Shown here: in pieces, positions 8,100 through 16,458 of the stretch
Layout of the letters: the number at the start of each line of letters is the position of its first letter
Numbering within the stretch: position 1 is the stretch's first letter
NCBI RefSeq assembly: GCF_024298765.1
Contig: NZ_CP101210.1
Length of the DNA stretch: 64,000 nt
Strand: one strand, 5' to 3'
Source: Escherichia coli
Lineage (GTDB): Bacteria; Pseudomonadota; Gammaproteobacteria; Enterobacterales; Enterobacteriaceae
Notes under the pieces: model-generated
The model's database searches: none
The model's input: the letters and a program-made list of their open reading frames with translations, nothing else
What the model was told of the DNA's origin: nothing
Program-made: the position numbers and the translations under genes

Positions 8100-9152
8100 T
8101 TATTCTGTTGGATCAGGAATGCCCAGTGTTGTATTCAGACGTCCACGAGACTTATTAAAGATCTTATTGCCATTTTCACGTCCTGCCCGACGGCGTCGCT
8201 GTTCTTCAGACGGTAACGCGCTTTCTTCGCAGCAAATCTCACTACAACAACCTTTGTATTTTTCCGCACATACTGGACACTGAATAAAAAGCAGGTGGCA
8301 GCCATCATTTTTACAGTTGGTATGGCTGTCGCACGGCGCACCGCACTGGTGGCAATGCGCGATAATCTCATCAGAGATACGTTCGCCCATCCGCTCGTCA
8401 AAAACAAAATTTTTGCCAATAAAACGTACCGGTAAACCCTGCTCGCGCGCCTTGCGGGCGTATTCAATAATTCCGCCCTCGATATGCCAGACTTTATTGA
8501 ATCCGTTATGTTTCATCCAGGCACTGGCCTTTTCACAACGAATGCCGCCGGTGCAGTACATAACGATTTTTTTATCTTTATGTGCCTGCATCATCTCGAC
8601 TGCTTTTGGCAGCTGCTCACGGAAGGTATCTGCCGGAATTTCCAGCGCGTTTTCAAAGTGCCCCACTTCATACTCATAGTGGTTACGCATGTCGATAAAC
8701 AATGCATCGGGATCGTCAAGCATGGCGTTCACTTCCGCCGCTTGCAGATACTCACCCACATTGCTGGCATCAAAGTGAGGATCGTTAATACCGTCGGCAA
8801 CGATACGATCACGGACCTTCATGCGCAGTACCCAGAAGGATTTCCCGTCATCATCCAACGCGATATTCAGGCGTAAGCCCTCTAAAGCCGGGTCGAAGGC
8901 ATAAAGCTGCGCGCGAAATGTTTCAACATTGCTCGCAGGTACGCTGATTTGCGCGTTAATGCCCTCATGCGCCAGATACACTCGCCCAAAAACATCCAGC
9001 GCGGTAAACAGCTGATATAAAGCGTCACGGGTCGCCTTAGGATCGGCGATGTGGAAGTACTTATAAAACGAAATGGTGGTTCGCGGTTCGCTCTCAGCCA
9101 ACATTTTGGCTTTTAACGCGTCGTTGGAAATGCGGTTGTGTAACACTGGCAT
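8100..9152 (-). CDS. trhO: tRNA uridine(34) hydroxylase TrhO / rhodanese-domain protein YceA (350 aa)
   Basis: ORF 8100..9206. The internal start gives [26 protein letters not shown]... The protein has a rhodanese CTGGIRCEK loop and a Cys-rich C-terminus. Confidence 0.92.
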
Positions 9153-9376
9153 GGTGTACGGTTCCTGCGAGATGGGAAAGTAAAAATCCGCGGCATGATA
9201 TAGCAATTATCGATAATTAACATCCACACATTTTACGCTACATTTGCGCATTAAAAATTATTTGTTATTTACAAGCGCGGCAATTTCGCCCAGTCTTCAG
9301 CCACAAATTTTGGTTGCGGGCGAAAAAATGCGACAATACATACAATTGCCCGAATAGGTTGAAAAACAGGATTGAT

Positions 9377-10297
9377 ATGACGAATCTACCCAAGTTCTCC
9401 ACCGCACTGCTTCATCCGCGTTATTGGTTAACCTGGTTGGGTATTGGCGTACTTTGGTTAGTCGTGCAATTGCCCTACCCGGTTATCTACCGCCTCGGTT
9501 GTGGATTAGGAAAACTTGCGTTACGTTTTATGAAACGACGCGCAAAAATTGTGCATCGCAACCTGGAACTGTGCTTCCCGGAAATGAGCGAACAAGAACG
9601 CCGTAAAATGGTGGTGAAGAATTTCGAATCCGTTGGCATGGGACTGATGGAAACTGGCATGGCGTGGTTCTGGCCGGACCGCAGAATCGCCCGCTGGACG
9701 GAAGTGATCGGCATGGAACACATTCGTGACGTGCAGGCGCAAAAACGCGGCATCCTGTTAGTTGGCATCCATTTTCTGACACTGGAGCTTGGTGCGCGGC
9801 AGTTTGGTATGCAGGAACCGGGGATTGGCGTTTACCGCCCGAACGATAATCCACTGATTGACTGGCTACAAACCTGGGGCCGTTTGCGCTCAAATAAATC
9901 GATGCTCGACCGCAAAGATTTAAAAGGCATGATTAAAGCCCTGAAAAAAGGCGAAGTGGTCTGGTACGCACCGGATCATGATTACGGCCCGCGCTCAAGC
10001 GTTTTCGTCCCGTTGTTTGCCGTTGAGCAGGCTGCGACCACAACCGGAACCTGGATGCTGGCACGGATGTCCGGCGCATGTCTGGTGCCCTTCGTTCCAC
10101 GCCGTAAGCCAGATGGCAAAGGGTATCAGTTGATTATGCTGCCGCCAGAGTGTTCTCCGCCGCTGGATGATGCCGAAACTACCGCCGCGTGGATGAACAA
10201 AGTGGTCGAAAAATGCATCATGATGGCACCAGAGCAGTATATGTGGTTACACCGTCGCTTTAAAACACGCCCGGAAGGCGTTCCTTCACGCTATTAA
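9377..10297 (+). CDS. lpxL: Lipid A biosynthesis lauroyltransferase (306 aa)
   Basis: The internal ATG of ORF 9314..10297 gives [27 protein letters not shown]..., recognised as LpxL/HtrB. Confidence 0.95.
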
Positions 10298-10468
10298 ATC
10301 TCCCATGCCGGATGCTTCAGAAGGGTATCCGGCATTACCACAGCAAATCCCCCTGATTTAGCGATAAAAGCTCTCTGGATTGCGCCCCCTGGAAGTCGGG
10401 CGCATAATTAGTGTGCTTATCTTTTCTTCTTATGTTCACCGCGCCTGGCGCACCAACAGCGGATTGCT

Positions 10469-10650
10469 ATGTCACCCTGTGAAAATGACACCCCTATAAA
10501 CTGGAAACGAAACCTGATCGTCGCCTGGCTAGGCTGTTTTCTTACCGGTGCCGCCTTCAGCCTGGTAATGCCCTTCTTACCCCTCTACGTTGAGCAGCTT
10601 GGCGTTACCGGCCACTCCGCCCTGAATATGTGGTCCGGTATTGTCTTCAG
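10469..10650 (+). pseudogene. mdtG: mdtG 5' fragment (codons 1 to about 61) cut by an insertion
   Basis: [62 protein letters not shown] is the MdtG N-terminus. The frame then reads MGP* in foreign sequence, with the stop at 10664-10666. Confidence 0.93.
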
Positions 10651-10672
10651 TATAATGGGTCCCTAAACACAT
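10628..10672. other. attL junction of the mdtG-borne element
   Basis: The sequence reads host ...ggtattgtcttc, then AG, then element tataatgggtccctaaacac. The arm TCCCTAAACAC (10660-10670) is the inverted partner of GTGTATTTAGGGA at 14933-14945. Confidence 0.75.
10651..10656 (+). promoter_or_regulatory. Consensus -10 hexamer TATAAT at the extreme left end of the element, upstream of the recombinase gene
   Basis: TATAAT lies 34 nt upstream of the ATG at 10690. No good -35 is visible in either the integrated or the reconstructed circular context. Confidence 0.3.
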
Positions 10673-10689
10673 CATTTTAGGTATTGAAT

Positions 10690-12219
10690 ATGAGACGGGC
10701 AATCAGCTACATCAGATTTTCAAGTGAACGACAACTAAAAGGGGACTCTGTACGCAGACAATCTAAGCTGGTCACTGACTGGCTTGATAAGAACCCTGAG
10801 TTTTACTTGGATTCATCCTTGAGCTTTAAAGATTTGGGGAAAAGTGCTTTTAGTGGTAAGCACTTGAAAGGTGGCTTAGGTGACTTTTTAACCGCTATCG
10901 AGAAAGGGCTTGTTAAAGCTGGTGATACACTACTAATCGAGAGTTTAGACCGTCTCTCACGTCAGGATATTGATATTGCTTCTGAGCTATTACGTCGTAT
11001 CTTAAGGGCTGGTGTAGATATAGTCACACTGAGCGATGGTGAACATTACACACGAGAAAGTTTAAAAGACCCGTTATCCCTGATTAAAAGCATTCTGATA
11101 ATGCAGCGGGCGCATGAGGAAAGTCTGAGGAAGTCTGAGCGTGTCCAAGCTGCATGGAACCGTAAAAAAGAACTCATCTCCGAAGGTATCAAGGTATCTA
11201 GGCGTTGTCCTGCATGGTTAAGGCTGAATGATGACCGTCGAACATTCACTATCATCCCCGATAAAGTGGAAGTTGTTAAACGAGCATTTGACCTGAGATT
11301 ACAGGGTTTAAGCTTTTGGGCTATCACCAGAACTTTAAACGATGAAGGCCACTTGTCATTGAATCAATACACACCTAAACAAAAGGGATGGTCTGATACT
11401 GCTGTAAAGAAACTACTCAGAAATCGTGCTGTGATTGGATGTTTCACACCTGCTGGACGTGAAGAAGTTCAGGGTTACTACCCCGCAATAATCAGTGAGT
11501 CACTATTCTATCGAGTACAGCAACTGAACACAGGGCAATATGGTAGGGCTTCTGTATCAAGTAATCCGCTATCAGTCAACTTGTTCAGGGGTATCATCAA
11601 ATGTTCTGAGTGTGGGGCTACTATTGTTCTTGGTGGATATGCCTTAAAACGTTTTGGGATGTACAGATGCCCTAATCGTTCAGCTAACAGGTGTAGTGCA
11701 AAGGCTATCAGTCGTAAGCAAACGGATACAACTATCCTTTACATGCTCGCATTATGCGACCGTTTTGAAACTGAAAATACTGACACTATTGATAGCCTTA
11801 AATTACAGCGTGAAGATTTGCAGCGTAAAATCTCAAAAATGGCAGAACTCGCTATTGAACTCGATGACATGACAATTATCACAGAGAAATTACGTGATAT
11901 GAAGAATGCGCTATCAAAACTCAATCATGATATCGAAGAGGAAACAAAGCGGATAAAGGCCATCACAACTGGAAGCCTCAAAGATATTGACAGGACAACA
12001 AAGGAAGGGATGATAGAGACACAGCTACTTATCAAGGGCGTACTCAAAGAAATAGTTATAGATGCCGCTAAACGTCGCTGTAAAGTGACTTTTCACAACG
12101 GTAAGGTAATTGACCTACCTATAACAGAAAACCCCTCAGAGGACGTTACAGAGGCCATACAGTCGCTTTCTGAAGTCACTGAGAGGGGTTTAATAGATGT
12201 TGATGTAGTAGCGATTTAG
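10690..12219 (+). CDS. Large serine recombinase (integrase), 509 aa from the ATG
   Basis: ORF track 10684..12219. The N-terminal catalytic domain has AISYIRFSSERQ and ESLDRLSRQ motifs. It is followed by a recombinase domain, a Cys4 zinc ribbon (CSECG...CPNRSANRC) and a long coiled coil (LKLQREDLQRKISKMAELAIELDD...). Confidence 0.9.
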   Translation: MRRAISYIRFSSERQLKGDSVRRQSKLVTDWLDKNPEFYLDSSLSFKDLGKSAFSGKHLKGGLGDFLTAIEKGLVKAGDTLLIESLDRLSRQDIDIASELLRRILRAGVDIVTLSDGEHYTRESLKDPLSLIKSILIMQRAHEESLRKSERVQAAWNRKKELISEGIKVSRRCPAWLRLNDDRRTFTIIPDKVEVVKRAFDLRLQGLSFWAITRTLNDEGHLSLNQYTPKQKGWSDTAVKKLLRNRAVIGCFTPAGREEVQGYYPAIISESLFYRVQQLNTGQYGRASVSSNPLSVNLFRGIIKCSECGATIVLGGYALKRFGMYRCPNRSANRCSAKAISRKQTDTTILYMLALCDRFETENTDTIDSLKLQREDLQRKISKMAELAIELDDMTIITEKLRDMKNALSKLNHDIEEETKRIKAITTGSLKDIDRTTKEGMIETQLLIKGVLKEIVIDAAKRRCKVTFHNGKVIDLPITENPSEDVTEAIQSLSEVTERGLIDVDVVAI

Positions 12220-12263
12220 TATCTCTTATTAGGATTCACTGAGTACTTTTTAAGCTTTGAAGC

Positions 12264-12307
12264 TACCCGACCAGCGTTACTGTTAGCATTGGTGAGGTTG
12301 GTTTTTT
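12264..12307 (+). terminator. Candidate intrinsic terminator after the large recombinase gene
   Basis: The imperfect stem ACCCGACCA...TGGTGAGGT (alternatively CCGACC/GGTTGG with a G-U pair) is followed by TTTTTT. Confidence 0.45.
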
Positions 12308-12482
12308 CAGCTTCTTCACAAAAAAGCTTCAGAGGTCTTCTTAACCATCCGCTAAGCAGGAGAGAGGGTGGTACATGAGAAAGAACCCTCACTTCTAAAA
12401 AGATTTTTTAGCTATTTTGCTTAAAACCATATCAAAAGATACATTTTATTGATTCAGGTCAAAGACAAAAGCATTGACAAAA

Positions 12483-12580
12483 TGGTAAAATTGTTCACAT
12501 GACCTTACTTAACAGACTTTTTAAGAGCTTTTGAGAAGCTTGTTGAACAGACACTCTTTCTGGAGTGTTGTCTTTTACTT
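12483..12580 (+). ncRNA. Hypothetical sRNA-like transcription unit of about 80 nt (promoter to terminator)
   Basis: An extended -10 TGGTAAAAT (12483-12491) is followed by the terminator-like hairpin ACAgACACTC tttctg GAGTGTTGT and CTTTTACTT (12547-12580). This is a prediction from sequence only. Confidence 0.2.
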
Positions 12581-12934
12581 AAGAGGTTTGTTTAGATAAC
12601 TCTCAAGGCATCTCTTAAGAATCACTGTTAAGGTGATACTCTCCCTTCGGGTTATATCGTATCTCTTCTCCCGTTAGACAGTTTTTCCTAGCAACTTCAT
12701 AGTTATCTGTCAAGTGCCTTTGAAGATTCCATCAAGACCTCTGAATCTGACCTGATATAGATGCTGTGAAGGCATATTCTCTAGGTCTGTGTAGCTTACT
12801 TAGTGGGAAGAGAGGGATATAGTGACCATAGGGGAACCCCTCCTGTTAAAAAGACTACTTAGAAGTCTGAGACTTTAGTAAAATCTGTGAATATAGCTTC
12901 TCAGACGCTCTGTAACGCATTCTAAGCGATTTTA

Positions 12935-12953
12935 CCACCTTATTTTAAGGTGG
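12935..12953. other. Perfect 7-bp hairpin CCACCTT-atttt-AAGGTGG
   Basis: Read directly from the sequence. It is immediately followed by the second copy of GGGTGGTACAT (12952-12962). Confidence 0.6.
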
Positions 12954-13206
12954 GTGGTACATCCCTATAGGTTACCCTAAAAATGGGGTTAAAACTCGCT
13001 ACAGAGCTTTCTATGAGGCTTGGTAGAGTTGCATAAATTTTACACAACACTTATTCAGCTTCTAAATTTTTTTATAAAAAATCGTAGTAACCCCTCTACA
13101 TTCCCCTTCACCGATAATCTTCAAAAATATCTATCACAGGTCTATACCTGCTAAGTACCCGTCACTACGCCTAAGTGGTCCCCTTTGCAAAATTTTAAAA
13201 TATCTA

Positions 13207-13233
13207 TTGACTTTTTATGTGAACTGTTATAAA
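13207..13233 (+). promoter_or_regulatory. Candidate sigma-70 promoter reading toward the small recombinase
   Basis: TTGACT (13207-13212), a 15-nt spacer, and the extended -10 TGtTATAAA (13225-13233). Confidence 0.4.
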
Positions 13234-13303
13234 GACCGCTCCATCTCTTAGGCATACCGTTATAGCATACTAAAAAGGTATAGCTAACCCCCTGTAAAAA
13301 CCA

Positions 13304-13345
13304 TACCGATTAGCCTTGTAAAACACTTTATCGGTACATTATACT
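13304..13345 (+). promoter_or_regulatory. Inverted repeat overlapping the proximal promoter of the small recombinase (res-like or operator candidate)
   Basis: TACCGAT (13304-13310) and ATCGGTA (13330-13336) are separated by 19 nt. They overlap TTGTAA (13316-13321), an 18-nt spacer and TATACT (13340-13345). A related ATACC-N18-GGTAT lies at 13254-13281. Confidence 0.4.
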
Positions 13346-13380
13346 CAACTCATCAAATGAGTAAGGCAAATGAGTATATT

Positions 13381-13926
13381 ATGGCTAACATTGGTTATAT
13401 CCGAGTTTCATCAATCCAGCAGATTACAGACCGTCAACTTGAAGGGGTCGTACTGGATAAGATATTTACTGATAAAGCATCTGGGAAGAATACAGACCGT
13501 CCACAACTAAAGGCTATGCTCGATTATGTTCGTGAAGGTGATGTTATCCATGTACACGACTTGTCACGTTTAGGGCGCTCTACCGTGGATGTATTAACGC
13601 TGGTGGATAAACTTTCACAGAAAGGTATCAAGGTTCACTTTCACAAAGAAGGTCTGATAACTGGTGACGATAACCCCACGTCTAAGATGATTCTCACAAT
13701 CTTTTCAGCAGTGGCTGAAGCTGAACGTAAAATGATGCTTGAGCGTCAACGAGAAGGCTATGAAGCTGCTAAAGCTGCTGGTCGTGTAGTTGGAAGGGGT
13801 AACGGTAAAGCGGTTGACAGAGAAGGTATTAAAGCTGCTCTTGCTGCTGGTGGTTCAATCGCTAAAGTAGCCGCTCAATTCAACGTTGCCAAGTCAACTG
13901 TACAGCGTATTAAAGCTGAAGATTAA
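13381..13926 (+). CDS. Small serine recombinase of the resolvase/invertase family (181 aa; alternative start at 13357 gives 189 aa)
   Basis: MANIGYIRVSSIQQ carries the catalytic Ser. The protein also has DLSRLGRS and AERKMMLERQREG motifs and a C-terminal HTH (SIAKVAAQFNVAKSTVQRI). The layout matches gamma-delta/Tn3 resolvase and Hin/Gin. Confidence 0.9.
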   Translation: MANIGYIRVSSIQQITDRQLEGVVLDKIFTDKASGKNTDRPQLKAMLDYVREGDVIHVHDLSRLGRSTVDVLTLVDKLSQKGIKVHFHKEGLITGDDNPTSKMILTIFSAVAEAERKMMLERQREGYEAAKAAGRVVGRGNGKAVDREGIKAALAAGGSIAKVAAQFNVAKSTVQRIKAED

Positions 13927-13939
13927 GTCAGGAAATACA

Positions 13940-14623
13940 TTAGATTTTTCTTCCAAATAAACTTGGGAGATTCTTACGGTTTCTTGCTTGCATCATTATT
14001 TCTGGGCTAACAAGTTTTTTTAATTCGCTTCTGTACTCATCAATAGAACACTCATCCGCAACAAGTTTTGAAATCAGGTCTTCAATAGACATAACATCTT
14101 GTTGCAGGAAATCAAGTTCACGAGACAAGTGCTTTTTTTGATTCTCTAACTTTCCTATCTCAGCATTTAAGTTATCTACATCTGTCGCCAATTTCTCTGC
14201 CTGAGATTTCAAATTACTTGTATCTTCTTTTTCTCTTTCGATAAGGTTTTTTTGTTTCTCAATCTTCAACTTTGACGTCAGTCTAGCTGACTCTTCAAGA
14301 TTTTCAGCTTCTACTTTTTGTCTTGCTCGCCATGCGGTTGCCTTGATTTGAAGTAGTGTTACAAGGTTGCTGAAGTAAGGGAAAAAGGTCGCCAAAATGA
14401 ACCCTAGCCCTACGGGATAGCATAATGTTTTTAGATAGAAGTCTTCCGTCGATGTGATTTGTTGAATACGAGTAACAACCGAAGCCTCACTAAGACACAT
14501 GATAGCAATGCTTTTCCAGTTAAATCCCACCCATGACAAAATGATGTAGCCCCATAAAGGGTTAGCTACTCGTTCCTTCAACGCCTGCTTAACTGATTCC
14601 GTGATACTTTCTTCACTACTCAC
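13940..14623 (-). CDS. Hypothetical protein with two TM segments and a coiled coil (227 aa)
   Basis: The GTG start is preceded by GGAG 8 nt upstream. Hydrophobic segments are PLWGYIILSWVGFNWKSIAIMCL and LCYPVGLGFILATFFPYFSNLVTLL. A charged heptad-like region of about 110 aa follows (EAENLEESARLTSKLKIEKQKNLIEREKED...). I do not recognise the family. Confidence 0.7.
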   Translation of the reverse strand: MSSEESITESVKQALKERVANPLWGYIILSWVGFNWKSIAIMCLSEASVVTRIQQITSTEDFYLKTLCYPVGLGFILATFFPYFSNLVTLLQIKATAWRARQKVEAENLEESARLTSKLKIEKQKNLIEREKEDTSNLKSQAEKLATDVDNLNAEIGKLENQKKHLSRELDFLQQDVMSIEDLISKLVADECSIDEYRSELKKLVSPEIMMQARNRKNLPSLFGRKI

Positions 14624-14893
14624 AATTACTGCTCCATAGAAAACTCTGGTTTGAGAAATTTTAATGCGAATCCAATCAGTTAGATAGACCTGTAAATAGC
14701 AATTTTATAGAAGTCGAGAGAGGGATGACTAACACCCTGCATAGTTTCCTGAAAAGAGACTTCGCATATTATCTATATATTTCAATAAGTTATGCTAAAA
14801 AGGAACTATACCAATACTGCATAGATTCTGCGTAAAACTGCTTGGATACTTGGAAATCCACCATTAAATTGCATAGTCATTCACCTGATAAAG

Positions 14894-14908
14894 CCTGTTA
14901 TTAACAGG
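14894..14908. other. Perfect 15-bp palindrome CCTGTTATTAACAGG near the right end of the element
   Basis: Read directly from the sequence. It is nested within TCACCTG (14881-14887) and CAGGTGA (14905-14911). Confidence 0.6.
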
Positions 14909-14932
14909 TGATAGGATTCGGATGTTCTCATA

Positions 14933-14980
14933 GTGTATTTAGGGAATTAATATCAGCATTACATTTTTATTTTCGGCCAT
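14933..14980. other. attR junction of the mdtG-borne element
   Basis: The sequence reads element GTGTATTTAGGGAATTAATATC, then AG, then host cattacatttttattttcggcc, which resumes MdtG as (S)[15 protein letters not shown]. Confidence 0.75.
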
Positions 14981-16001
14981 CGCCTCACCGTTTTGGGGTG
15001 GACTCGCCGACCGTAAAGGCCGAAAACTCATGCTATTACGCTCTGCCCTCGGCATGGGCATCGTGATGGTGTTGATGGGACTGGCACAAAATATCTGGCA
15101 GTTTTTGATCCTGCGGGCGCTTCTTGGGTTACTTGGCGGATTTGTCCCCAACGCTAATGCTCTTATCGCCACACAAGTACCGCGTAATAAAAGCGGCTGG
15201 GCGCTGGGTACGCTCTCCACAGGCGGCGTTAGTGGTGCGTTGCTCGGCCCAATGGCTGGCGGCCTGCTCGCCGATAGCTACGGCTTACGTCCGGTATTCT
15301 TTATTACCGCCAGTGTGCTCATACTCTGCTTTTTCGTCACCCTGTTCTGCATCAGAGAAAAATTCCAGCCGGTCAGCAAAAAAGAGATGCTGCACATGCG
15401 GGAAGTGGTGACATCACTTAAAAACCCGAAACTGGTACTCAGCCTGTTTGTCACCACGTTAATCATCCAGGTGGCGACAGGCTCAATTGCCCCCATTCTG
15501 ACGCTGTATGTCCGCGAACTGGCGGGTAACGTCAGTAACGTCGCCTTTATCAGTGGCATGATCGCCTCGGTGCCAGGCGTGGCGGCTCTGCTAAGCGCAC
15601 CACGACTCGGCAAACTTGGCGATCGAATCGGACCCGAAAAGATCCTGATTACAGCGCTGATCTTTTCTGTACTGCTGTTGATCCCAATGTCTTACGTTCA
15701 GACGCCATTGCAACTTGGGATTTTACGTTTTTTGCTCGGTGCCGCCGATGGTGCACTACTCCCCGCCGTACAGACACTGTTGGTTTACAACTCGAGCAAC
15801 CAGATCGCCGGGCGTATCTTCAGCTATAACCAATCGTTTCGTGATATTGGCAACGTTACCGGACCATTGATGGGAGCAGCGATTTCAGCGAACTACGGTT
15901 TCAGAGCGGTATTTCTCGTCACCGCTGGCGTCGTGTTATTCAACGCAGTCTATTCATGGAACAGTCTACGTCGTCGTCGAATACCCCAGGTATCGAACTG
16001 A
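14957..16001 (+). pseudogene. mdtG: mdtG 3' fragment (codon 61 to the stop)
   Basis: The frame reads [38 protein letters not shown]... and runs to the stop at 16001. ORF-track entry 15030..16001 is its internal-Met portion. Confidence 0.93.
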
Positions 16002-16083
16002 TTTTTCGCCTTTCATACTTGCAAAAGCGGAGAATCAGCTATCCTTTTCCCTGAAACCTCATCAACTCAAAGGGAGAATCGTG

Positions 16084-16458
16084 ATGACCATGTACGCAAC
16101 GCTTGAAGAAGCCATTGACGCTGCACGCGAAGAATTTCTTGCAGACAACCCCGGCATCGACGCCGAAGATGCGAATGTGCAACAGTTCAATGCCCAAAAA
16201 TACGTTTTGCAGGACGGCGACATCATGTGGCAAGTTGAGTTTTTTGCCGACGAAGGGGAAGAAGGTGAATGTTTACCTATGCTTAGCGGTGAAGCCGCGC
16301 AAAGTGTTTTTGATGGCGACTATGATGAGATAGAGATACGCCAGGAGTGGCAGGAAGAGAATACATTACATGAATGGGACGAGGGGGAATTTCAGCTTGA
16401 GCCACCGCTGGATACCGAGGAAGGACGCGCAGCAGCTGATGAGTGGGATGAACGTTAA
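16084..16458 (+). CDS. msyB: Acidic protein MsyB (124 aa)
   Basis: MTMYATLEEAIDAAREEFLADNPGIDAEDANVQQ... is highly acidic and recognised as MsyB. Confidence 0.93.
   Translation: MTMYATLEEAIDAAREEFLADNPGIDAEDANVQQFNAQKYVLQDGDIMWQVEFFADEGEEGECLPMLSGEAAQSVFDGDYDEIEIRQEWQEENTLHEWDEGEFQLEPPLDTEEGRAAADEWDER

Follow-up and report, generated by a model that had tools for sequence, protein, structure and literature searches.

A probable AG crossover dinucleotide for a large serine recombinase element that interrupts mdtG in Escherichia coli

Serine recombinases make 2-bp staggered double-strand cuts, form a 5'-phosphoserine link with the DNA and exchange strands by subunit rotation, and in the serine integrases the central dinucleotide alone sets the polarity of integration. 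Elements that carry a large serine recombinase (LSR) and interrupt host genes include SPbeta in spsM and the skin element in sigK of Bacillus subtilis, and the A118-like phages in comK of Listeria. The element described here resembles these in that it lies within a host coding sequence and its precise excision would restore the gene, here with an AGC codon. The phage-type LSRs of A118/LI, phiC31, Bxb1 and TP901-1 have the same parts as the LSR of this element, namely a resolvase-type catalytic domain, a recombinase domain and a zinc ribbon with a coiled-coil insert, and as in those systems attP adjoins the integrase gene and orientation is apparently set by the core dinucleotide. In the A118 system a short attP has pseudo-palindromic half-sites about a central dinucleotide, and attB shares little with it beyond the core (PMC3783163); the att sites at the present locus have this same architecture. 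The locus differs from the phage-type systems in its carrier, which is a 4.3-kb remainder of an 11.5-kb element rather than a phage, and its LSR differs from the solved integrases in that the similarity is marginal and confined to the C-terminal domains (residues 244-460 match those of the A118 integrase distantly; 4kis, E = 3e-4).

Among phage and plasmid proteins, the best match to this LSR is YbcK of DLP12 and the lambdoid coliphages, which is approximately 37% identical over its full length. Lambdoid phages normally integrate by a tyrosine integrase. Unlike the LSR described here, YbcK is encoded within lambdoid genomes, with the replication genes on one side and the nin region on the other, and those phage records call it a recombinase or a hypothetical protein rather than the integrase. 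No recognisable GTGTTTAGG-type arms were present in the flanks of YbcK in phage 4A7, and YbcK was therefore left out of the att analysis. A scan with an LSR alignment over one genome per species returned only truncated Shigella/Escherichia copies and very distant relatives, none of which could serve for comparing att sites.

The window, which is the whole 64-kb stretch of DNA analysed here, is E. coli chromosome carrying flg genes, lpxL, mdtG, msyB and mdoH. An insert of 4.3 kb, at 10651-14954, interrupts mdtG at the Ser62 codon and encodes the 509-aa LSR, a 189-aa small serine recombinase and, on the opposite strand, a 227-aa coiled-coil protein. The features of the locus are as follows.

10469 to 10650, plus strand: mdtG 5' fragment, codons 1-61 plus the AG of Ser62 (open reading frame list; identical loci are annotated as truncated mdtG)
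10627 to 10672, no strand: attL, comprising B half-site 10627-10648, AG crossover (probable) 10649-10650 and P' half-site 10651-10672
10690 to 12219, plus strand: large serine recombinase (integrase), 509 aa (Pfam Resolvase, Recombinase and Zn_ribbon_recom; phrog_95; 4kis)
12216 to 12392, minus strand: 58-aa open reading frame whose C-terminus is left over from the Dit-like tail gene that full-length relatives carry (comparison with relatives)
12394 to 13356, no strand: stretch with no open reading frame of at least 50 aa, upstream of the small recombinase (12394-12851 conserved across LSR lineages)
13357 to 13926, plus strand: small serine recombinase of resolvase/invertase type, 189 aa (Pfam Resolvase and HTH_7)
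13940 to 14623, minus strand: 227-aa coiled-coil protein (cargo) (sub-threshold coiled-coil matches; PHROG families)
14679 to 14932, no strand: conserved attP-adjacent region (86-89% identity among mdtG-type elements; three TGCATAG repeats)
14933 to 14978, no strand: attR, comprising P half-site 14933-14954, AG crossover (probable) 14955-14956 and B' half-site 14957-14978
14955 to 16001, plus strand: mdtG 3' fragment, from Ser62 (AGC) (open reading frame list; annotation of relatives)

The open frame of the mdtG 5' fragment continues into the element and ends at a TAA (10664-10666) within the P' arm. Because this stop lies 24 nt before the integrase start, the integrase could be read through from the mdtG promoter in the integrated state. 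At the other end an in-frame TAG in the P arm, 15 nt upstream of the mdtG 3' fragment, leaves no translational rescue from the element, so mdtG is inactivated. The 509-aa protein is a large serine recombinase by its domain set: it matches the N-terminal catalytic domain PF00239 (E = 2.9e-16), PF07508 (9.9e-18) and PF13408 (8.7e-07), the latter two above their gathering scores, and the phrog_95 integrase at 3.7e-80. Its start codon is 40 bp from the left junction, its reading frame is intact, and its conserved catalytic motif reads YIRFSSERQ (R9, S11), with R9 and S11 invariant in an alignment of three of the LSR lineages described below. Searches of the 227-aa protein against defence-system models and NCBIfam gave coiled-coil noise only, and its PHROG matches are to families without known function.

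Related elements of about 11.5 kb were found at L005 20000-31450, L002 20000-31660, L027 14020-25870, L021 7830-19270 and L020 6950-18060. The full-length relatives in mdtG are 11.4-11.8 kb long, with one copy reaching about 15 kb through IS insertions. Their products include a protein resembling phage replication initiators, a tape-measure protein (PF20155), a Dit-like protein (PF21821) and a small serine recombinase, and Dam or HNH genes are present as well. Strains JNU, A1 and APEC O18 are among those with a full-length element. There are at least four LSR lineages in the family, whose targets are the 5' parts of mdtG, dinB and wrbA. In strain PK6 an 11.8-kb element (L027) occupies the same mdtG position in the same orientation and uses the same attB with an LSR 76% identical to that of the window. 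The dinB type (L006, L021 and L026) has an LSR 37% identical to the window LSR and integrates at dinB codons 4-5, with junctions at L006 3960-4010 and 15440-15500, L021 7780-7830 and 19240-19300, and L026 14000-14050 and 19480-19590. The empty dinB sequence occurs without change in 1,305 genomes, and the only overlap of the dinB type with it is the 2-bp AT. The wrbA type (L020) has an LSR 35% identical to that of the window and lies in the 5' end of wrbA, with a 7-bp identity and a symmetry centre at AC. The PK6, dinB and wrbA sisters are like the window element in having the integrase gene directly after attL and in being inserted in the 5' part of a host gene; they differ in their cores (AG at mdtG, palindromic AT at dinB and AC within the 7-bp identity at wrbA) and in retaining the Dit-like, tape-measure and replication-initiator-like genes, which the window copy does not have. 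Compared with L005, about 7.6 kb is absent from the window copy through internal deletion and most of the family genes are lost; the deletion is marked by the 58-aa frame at 12216-12392, a C-terminal stub of the Dit-like gene. By this comparison the window copy arose by deletion within the ~11.5-kb element family.

The junction sequences and coordinates given by a first-pass annotation of this DNA were exact on re-reading. The left junction, attL, reads ...GGTATTGTCTTC-AG-TATAATGGGTCCCTAAACAC with the AG at 10649-10650, and the right junction, attR, reads GTGTATTTAGGGAATTAATATC-AG-CATTACATTTT with the AG at 14955-14956; both contain TCAG, then T or C, then AT, as that annotation had reported. 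Joining the right end of the element to its left end gives an attP of roughly 46 bp, GTGTATTTAGGGAATTAATATC-AG-TATAATGGGTCCCTAAACAC, and joining the flanks gives an attB of the same approximate length, ...GGTATTGTCTTC-AG-CATTACATTTT..., with the core region ...GTCTTC-AG-CATTACA.... In 50-bp form the two sites are AGTGTATTTAGGGAATTAATATC-AG-TATAATGGGTCCCTAAACACAT for attP and TGTGGTCCGGTATTGTCTTC-AG-CATTACATTTTTATTTTCGGC for attB. Exact and degenerate patterns for a free attP junction found none in viral or metagenome contigs, and a junction-spanning 47-mer had 0 matches in complete E. coli assemblies. Since the unintegrated site was not found, the attP given here is reconstructed, not observed.

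Outward from AG the two element arms agree at 15 of 22 positions, and positions 10-17 of both read AGGGATTT, which bears out the earlier description. Across the window, arm symmetry averages 5.5 (sd 2.1), and 15 or more matches occur at 3 of 63,954 dinucleotide centres, an empirical frequency of 5e-5 for symmetry as strong as that of attP. The best score at any other centre within 30 bp is 11, and shuffled arms reach 15 in 26 of 200,000 trials. The symmetry of the attP arms is real and far beyond chance. The symmetry of attB was described as only weak, and a hand count agrees: about 5 of the first 20 half-site positions match. In the LI integrase model the outer motif of attP, a zinc-ribbon-domain motif, recurs in attB 5 bp nearer the core (PMC3783163). 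Here the P-type half-sites have a common motif, A10, G13, A14 and T16 counted from the core, found in 10/10 half-sites from four LSR lineages with targets in mdtG, dinB and wrbA; its counterpart at positions 5, 8, 9 and 11 of the B and B' half-sites is not visible in any lineage, among the few sites available.

Comparison of these sites argues that AG is very probably the crossover dinucleotide of the window element, as the first-pass annotation had proposed; empty alleles, the PK6 overlap and the register fixed by the dinB type all point to it. Two other placements had to be weighed. The annotation had noted that the AT three bases downstream, within TCAGnAT, is common to both junctions; were this palindromic dinucleotide the crossover, the original codon would be AGT and excision circles would carry ...TCAGCATAATGGG. 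A 3-bp shift of the centre does offset the arms by 6 bp, as had been calculated, and about AT the arms match at only 5/22 positions. Of 5,415 E. coli genomes, 4,819 matched a 92-mer uniting both flanks with AGC and had no mismatch inside it, giving AGC at no fewer than 4,819 empty sites, whereas a 43-mer for which a megablast hit requires AGT at this codon found 1 of 5,426. This lone empty AGT allele, in E. coli 23AR1101 (L022 6008-6031), is the one host sequence that an AT crossover can claim, and at 98.4% identity its flanks resemble the window no more than those of unrelated strains do. Because 23AR1101 is not close to the window strain, we read its AGT as a single change that is probably synonymous; a footprint of excision at AT was considered for it and rejected, given its occurrence once in 5,426 genomes and in such a lineage. 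The survey of empty alleles thus came out opposite to the pattern of AGT throughout the closest relatives that the annotation had named as telling against AG, and its proposal of AGC (Ser) as the original host codon holds. That empty sites carry AGC effectively excludes AT and leaves TCAG as all that attP has in common with attB. A palindromic core should moreover yield both orientations, as at dinB, yet the 22 insertions in mdtG all have the same orientation. We consider a crossover at AT extremely improbable.

Exchange by the integrase at CA or TC within TCAG fits the junctions of the window element and of L002-L005, where attL and attR share the full TCAG and identity cannot separate TC, CA and AG. 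PK6 does separate them, since its attL (gtcttcAGtataatacc) and attR (catatatgAGcattaca) place G before AG in attP as against C in attB; attP and attB mismatch on both sides of AG, so that the overlap there is AG alone and neither CA nor TC is shared, presuming no mutation beside the core after integration. Identity between attP and attB accordingly covers TCAG in the window type and only AG in the PK6 type. Symmetry falls from 15/22 about AG to 10/22 about CA and 8/22 about TC, with the AGGGATTT blocks 2 or 4 bp out of register. The 2-bp overlap of the dinB sister sets the distance from motif to core, and the window attP fits this distance only with AG at its centre. A position matrix derived solely from other lineages (the six half-sites of the PK6, dinB and wrbA types) gives the window attP +19.6 bits when centred on AG and a negative score at all nine other centres tried, including CA (-5.5), TC (-9.9) and AT (-21.5). 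A crossover at CA or TC is, on this evidence, very unlikely, and AG is kept in what follows.

Ordinary serine-integrase integration of a 4.3-kb element into mdtG appears to be the best reading of the locus, with the staggered cut and rotation inferred from the mechanism of the family. Two integrase dimers would bind the two sites, of which attP is quasi-symmetric and attB weakly symmetric; both sites would be cut at the central AG with a 2-bp stagger, the subunits would rotate and the ends would be religated, yielding attL (10627-10672) and attR (14933-14978). Excision would return an intact mdtG with the AGC Ser codon, and the junction of the excised circle is predicted to be ...AATATC-AG-TATAAT... 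(...AATATCAGTATAATGG...). We identified no candidate directionality factor for excision.

There is little probability, in our judgement, that the element is instead an inert relic, or that it owes its position to homologous recombination or the small serine recombinase, with an arm symmetry that has no function. The loss of 7.6 kb including the replication and structural genes, the absence of an excised form from the viral contigs, metagenome contigs and complete E. coli assemblies searched, and the presence of a second serine recombinase would all suit it. Against a relic, the LSR frame is intact with its catalytic motif kept, and the symmetry far beyond chance is conserved across lineages. 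Import through flanking homology is opposed by the pig strain NT1F25 (L001). Over the region compared (window 9150-16450 versus L001), its element differs at 1 of 4,304 nt and its flanks at 21 of 3,000 nt, and the flank differences begin 38 and 91 bp away from the junctions. A near-identical element between diverged flanks indicates recent, independent, site-specific acquisition in the NT1F25 and window lineages, not shared descent or flanking-homology import. The attL junction, found in 22 E. coli genomes, is also base-identical among them even though they include at least three element variants. Besides NT1F25, CT265 and APEC E12049 are carrier strains. As for the small serine recombinase, it was rejected as the integrase because its sequence does not follow the integration site: it is 34% identical to its counterpart in L005, which has the same att sites, and its module is 95.6% nucleotide-identical to that of L006, a dinB integrant with a different LSR. 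Site choice tracks the LSR lineage and not the small recombinase. An element that has neither replication nor structural genes seems to have spread recently between lineages.

Orientation provides a further comparison. Among 5,426 complete E. coli genomes all 22 occupied mdtG sites hold the element in the same orientation, and a search for the inverted mdtG junction returned only cross-matches to the normal one. As AG is not palindromic, an element with this core can enter in one orientation only, and the single orientation at mdtG supports a non-palindromic core. For the dinB type, with its palindromic AT core, the forward junction was found in 8 genomes and the inverted junction in 17, and the inversion was confirmed in strain H2 by reading both junctions; a palindromic core here goes with insertion in both orientations in nature.

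The arm of the dinB type (..AGTGAARATY-AT-TCATG..) rebuilds a GTG-start dinB frame, one codon shorter, in either orientation (L006 3960-3990; L026 19540-19580). Annotation gives dinB as intact at these integrants, although the sequence that normally precedes the gene now lies on the far side of the element. Relative to the integrase gene and attP, the dinB and mdtG types have opposite orientations of the cargo block that runs from the Dit-like gene through the small recombinase (L005 versus L006 and L021), and L002 and L003 differ in the direction of the small recombinase gene, a pattern that suggests inversions within the elements.

Part of the non-coding stretch upstream of the small recombinase is shared among the family. 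Elements whose integrases differ keep the segment 12394-12851 at 74-89% conservation, with counterparts at L005 29444-29900, L020 16001-16461 and L021 15594-16077. Within it a promoter-like site (12462-12491) is invariant, and a hairpin resembling a terminator lies at 12550-12569. From an alignment read by eye, the pairing of the hairpin is kept in L021 with a different sequence. An Rfam scan of the element assigned no family to 12394-12851 and gave one sub-threshold chance match only; this segment could encode a small RNA, act as an origin or serve in regulation. Just inside the P arm, three copies of TGCATAG lie on the same strand within 140 bp (at 14738, 14818 and 14870), out of 7 in the 64-kb window, and more occur in the equivalent region of the wrbA type (L020 17570-18000). 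These repeats may be candidate binding sites for a regulator or accessory factor.

Taken more broadly, the window element could be a decayed member of an undescribed ~11.5-kb E. coli family, possibly a tail-gene-carrying phage satellite, whose integrases share one attP arm motif and have diversified to the 5' parts of mdtG, dinB and wrbA, with one lineage using a palindromic AT core and inserting in both orientations. We offer this whole picture tentatively and regard it as possible but doubtful. Literature on mdtG or wrbA with a serine recombinase, and on satellites with tail genes, yielded no description of this element or family.

Nothing here overturns current understanding, and the insertion of the dinB type in both orientations and the ~11.5-kb family are more novel than the AG crossover itself. 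For E. coli, mdtG is disrupted, reversibly in principle, in about 0.4% of complete genomes (22/5,426). A previously uncharacterised LSR would now have a defined attP, attB and core dinucleotide, read from the compared sequences, which is the minimum for a trial as a recombination tool or element marker. The dinB lineage is a natural example of polarity set by the central dinucleotide, and the four related integrases, with a common attP arm motif and different cores and targets, form a natural series on the change of target specificity.
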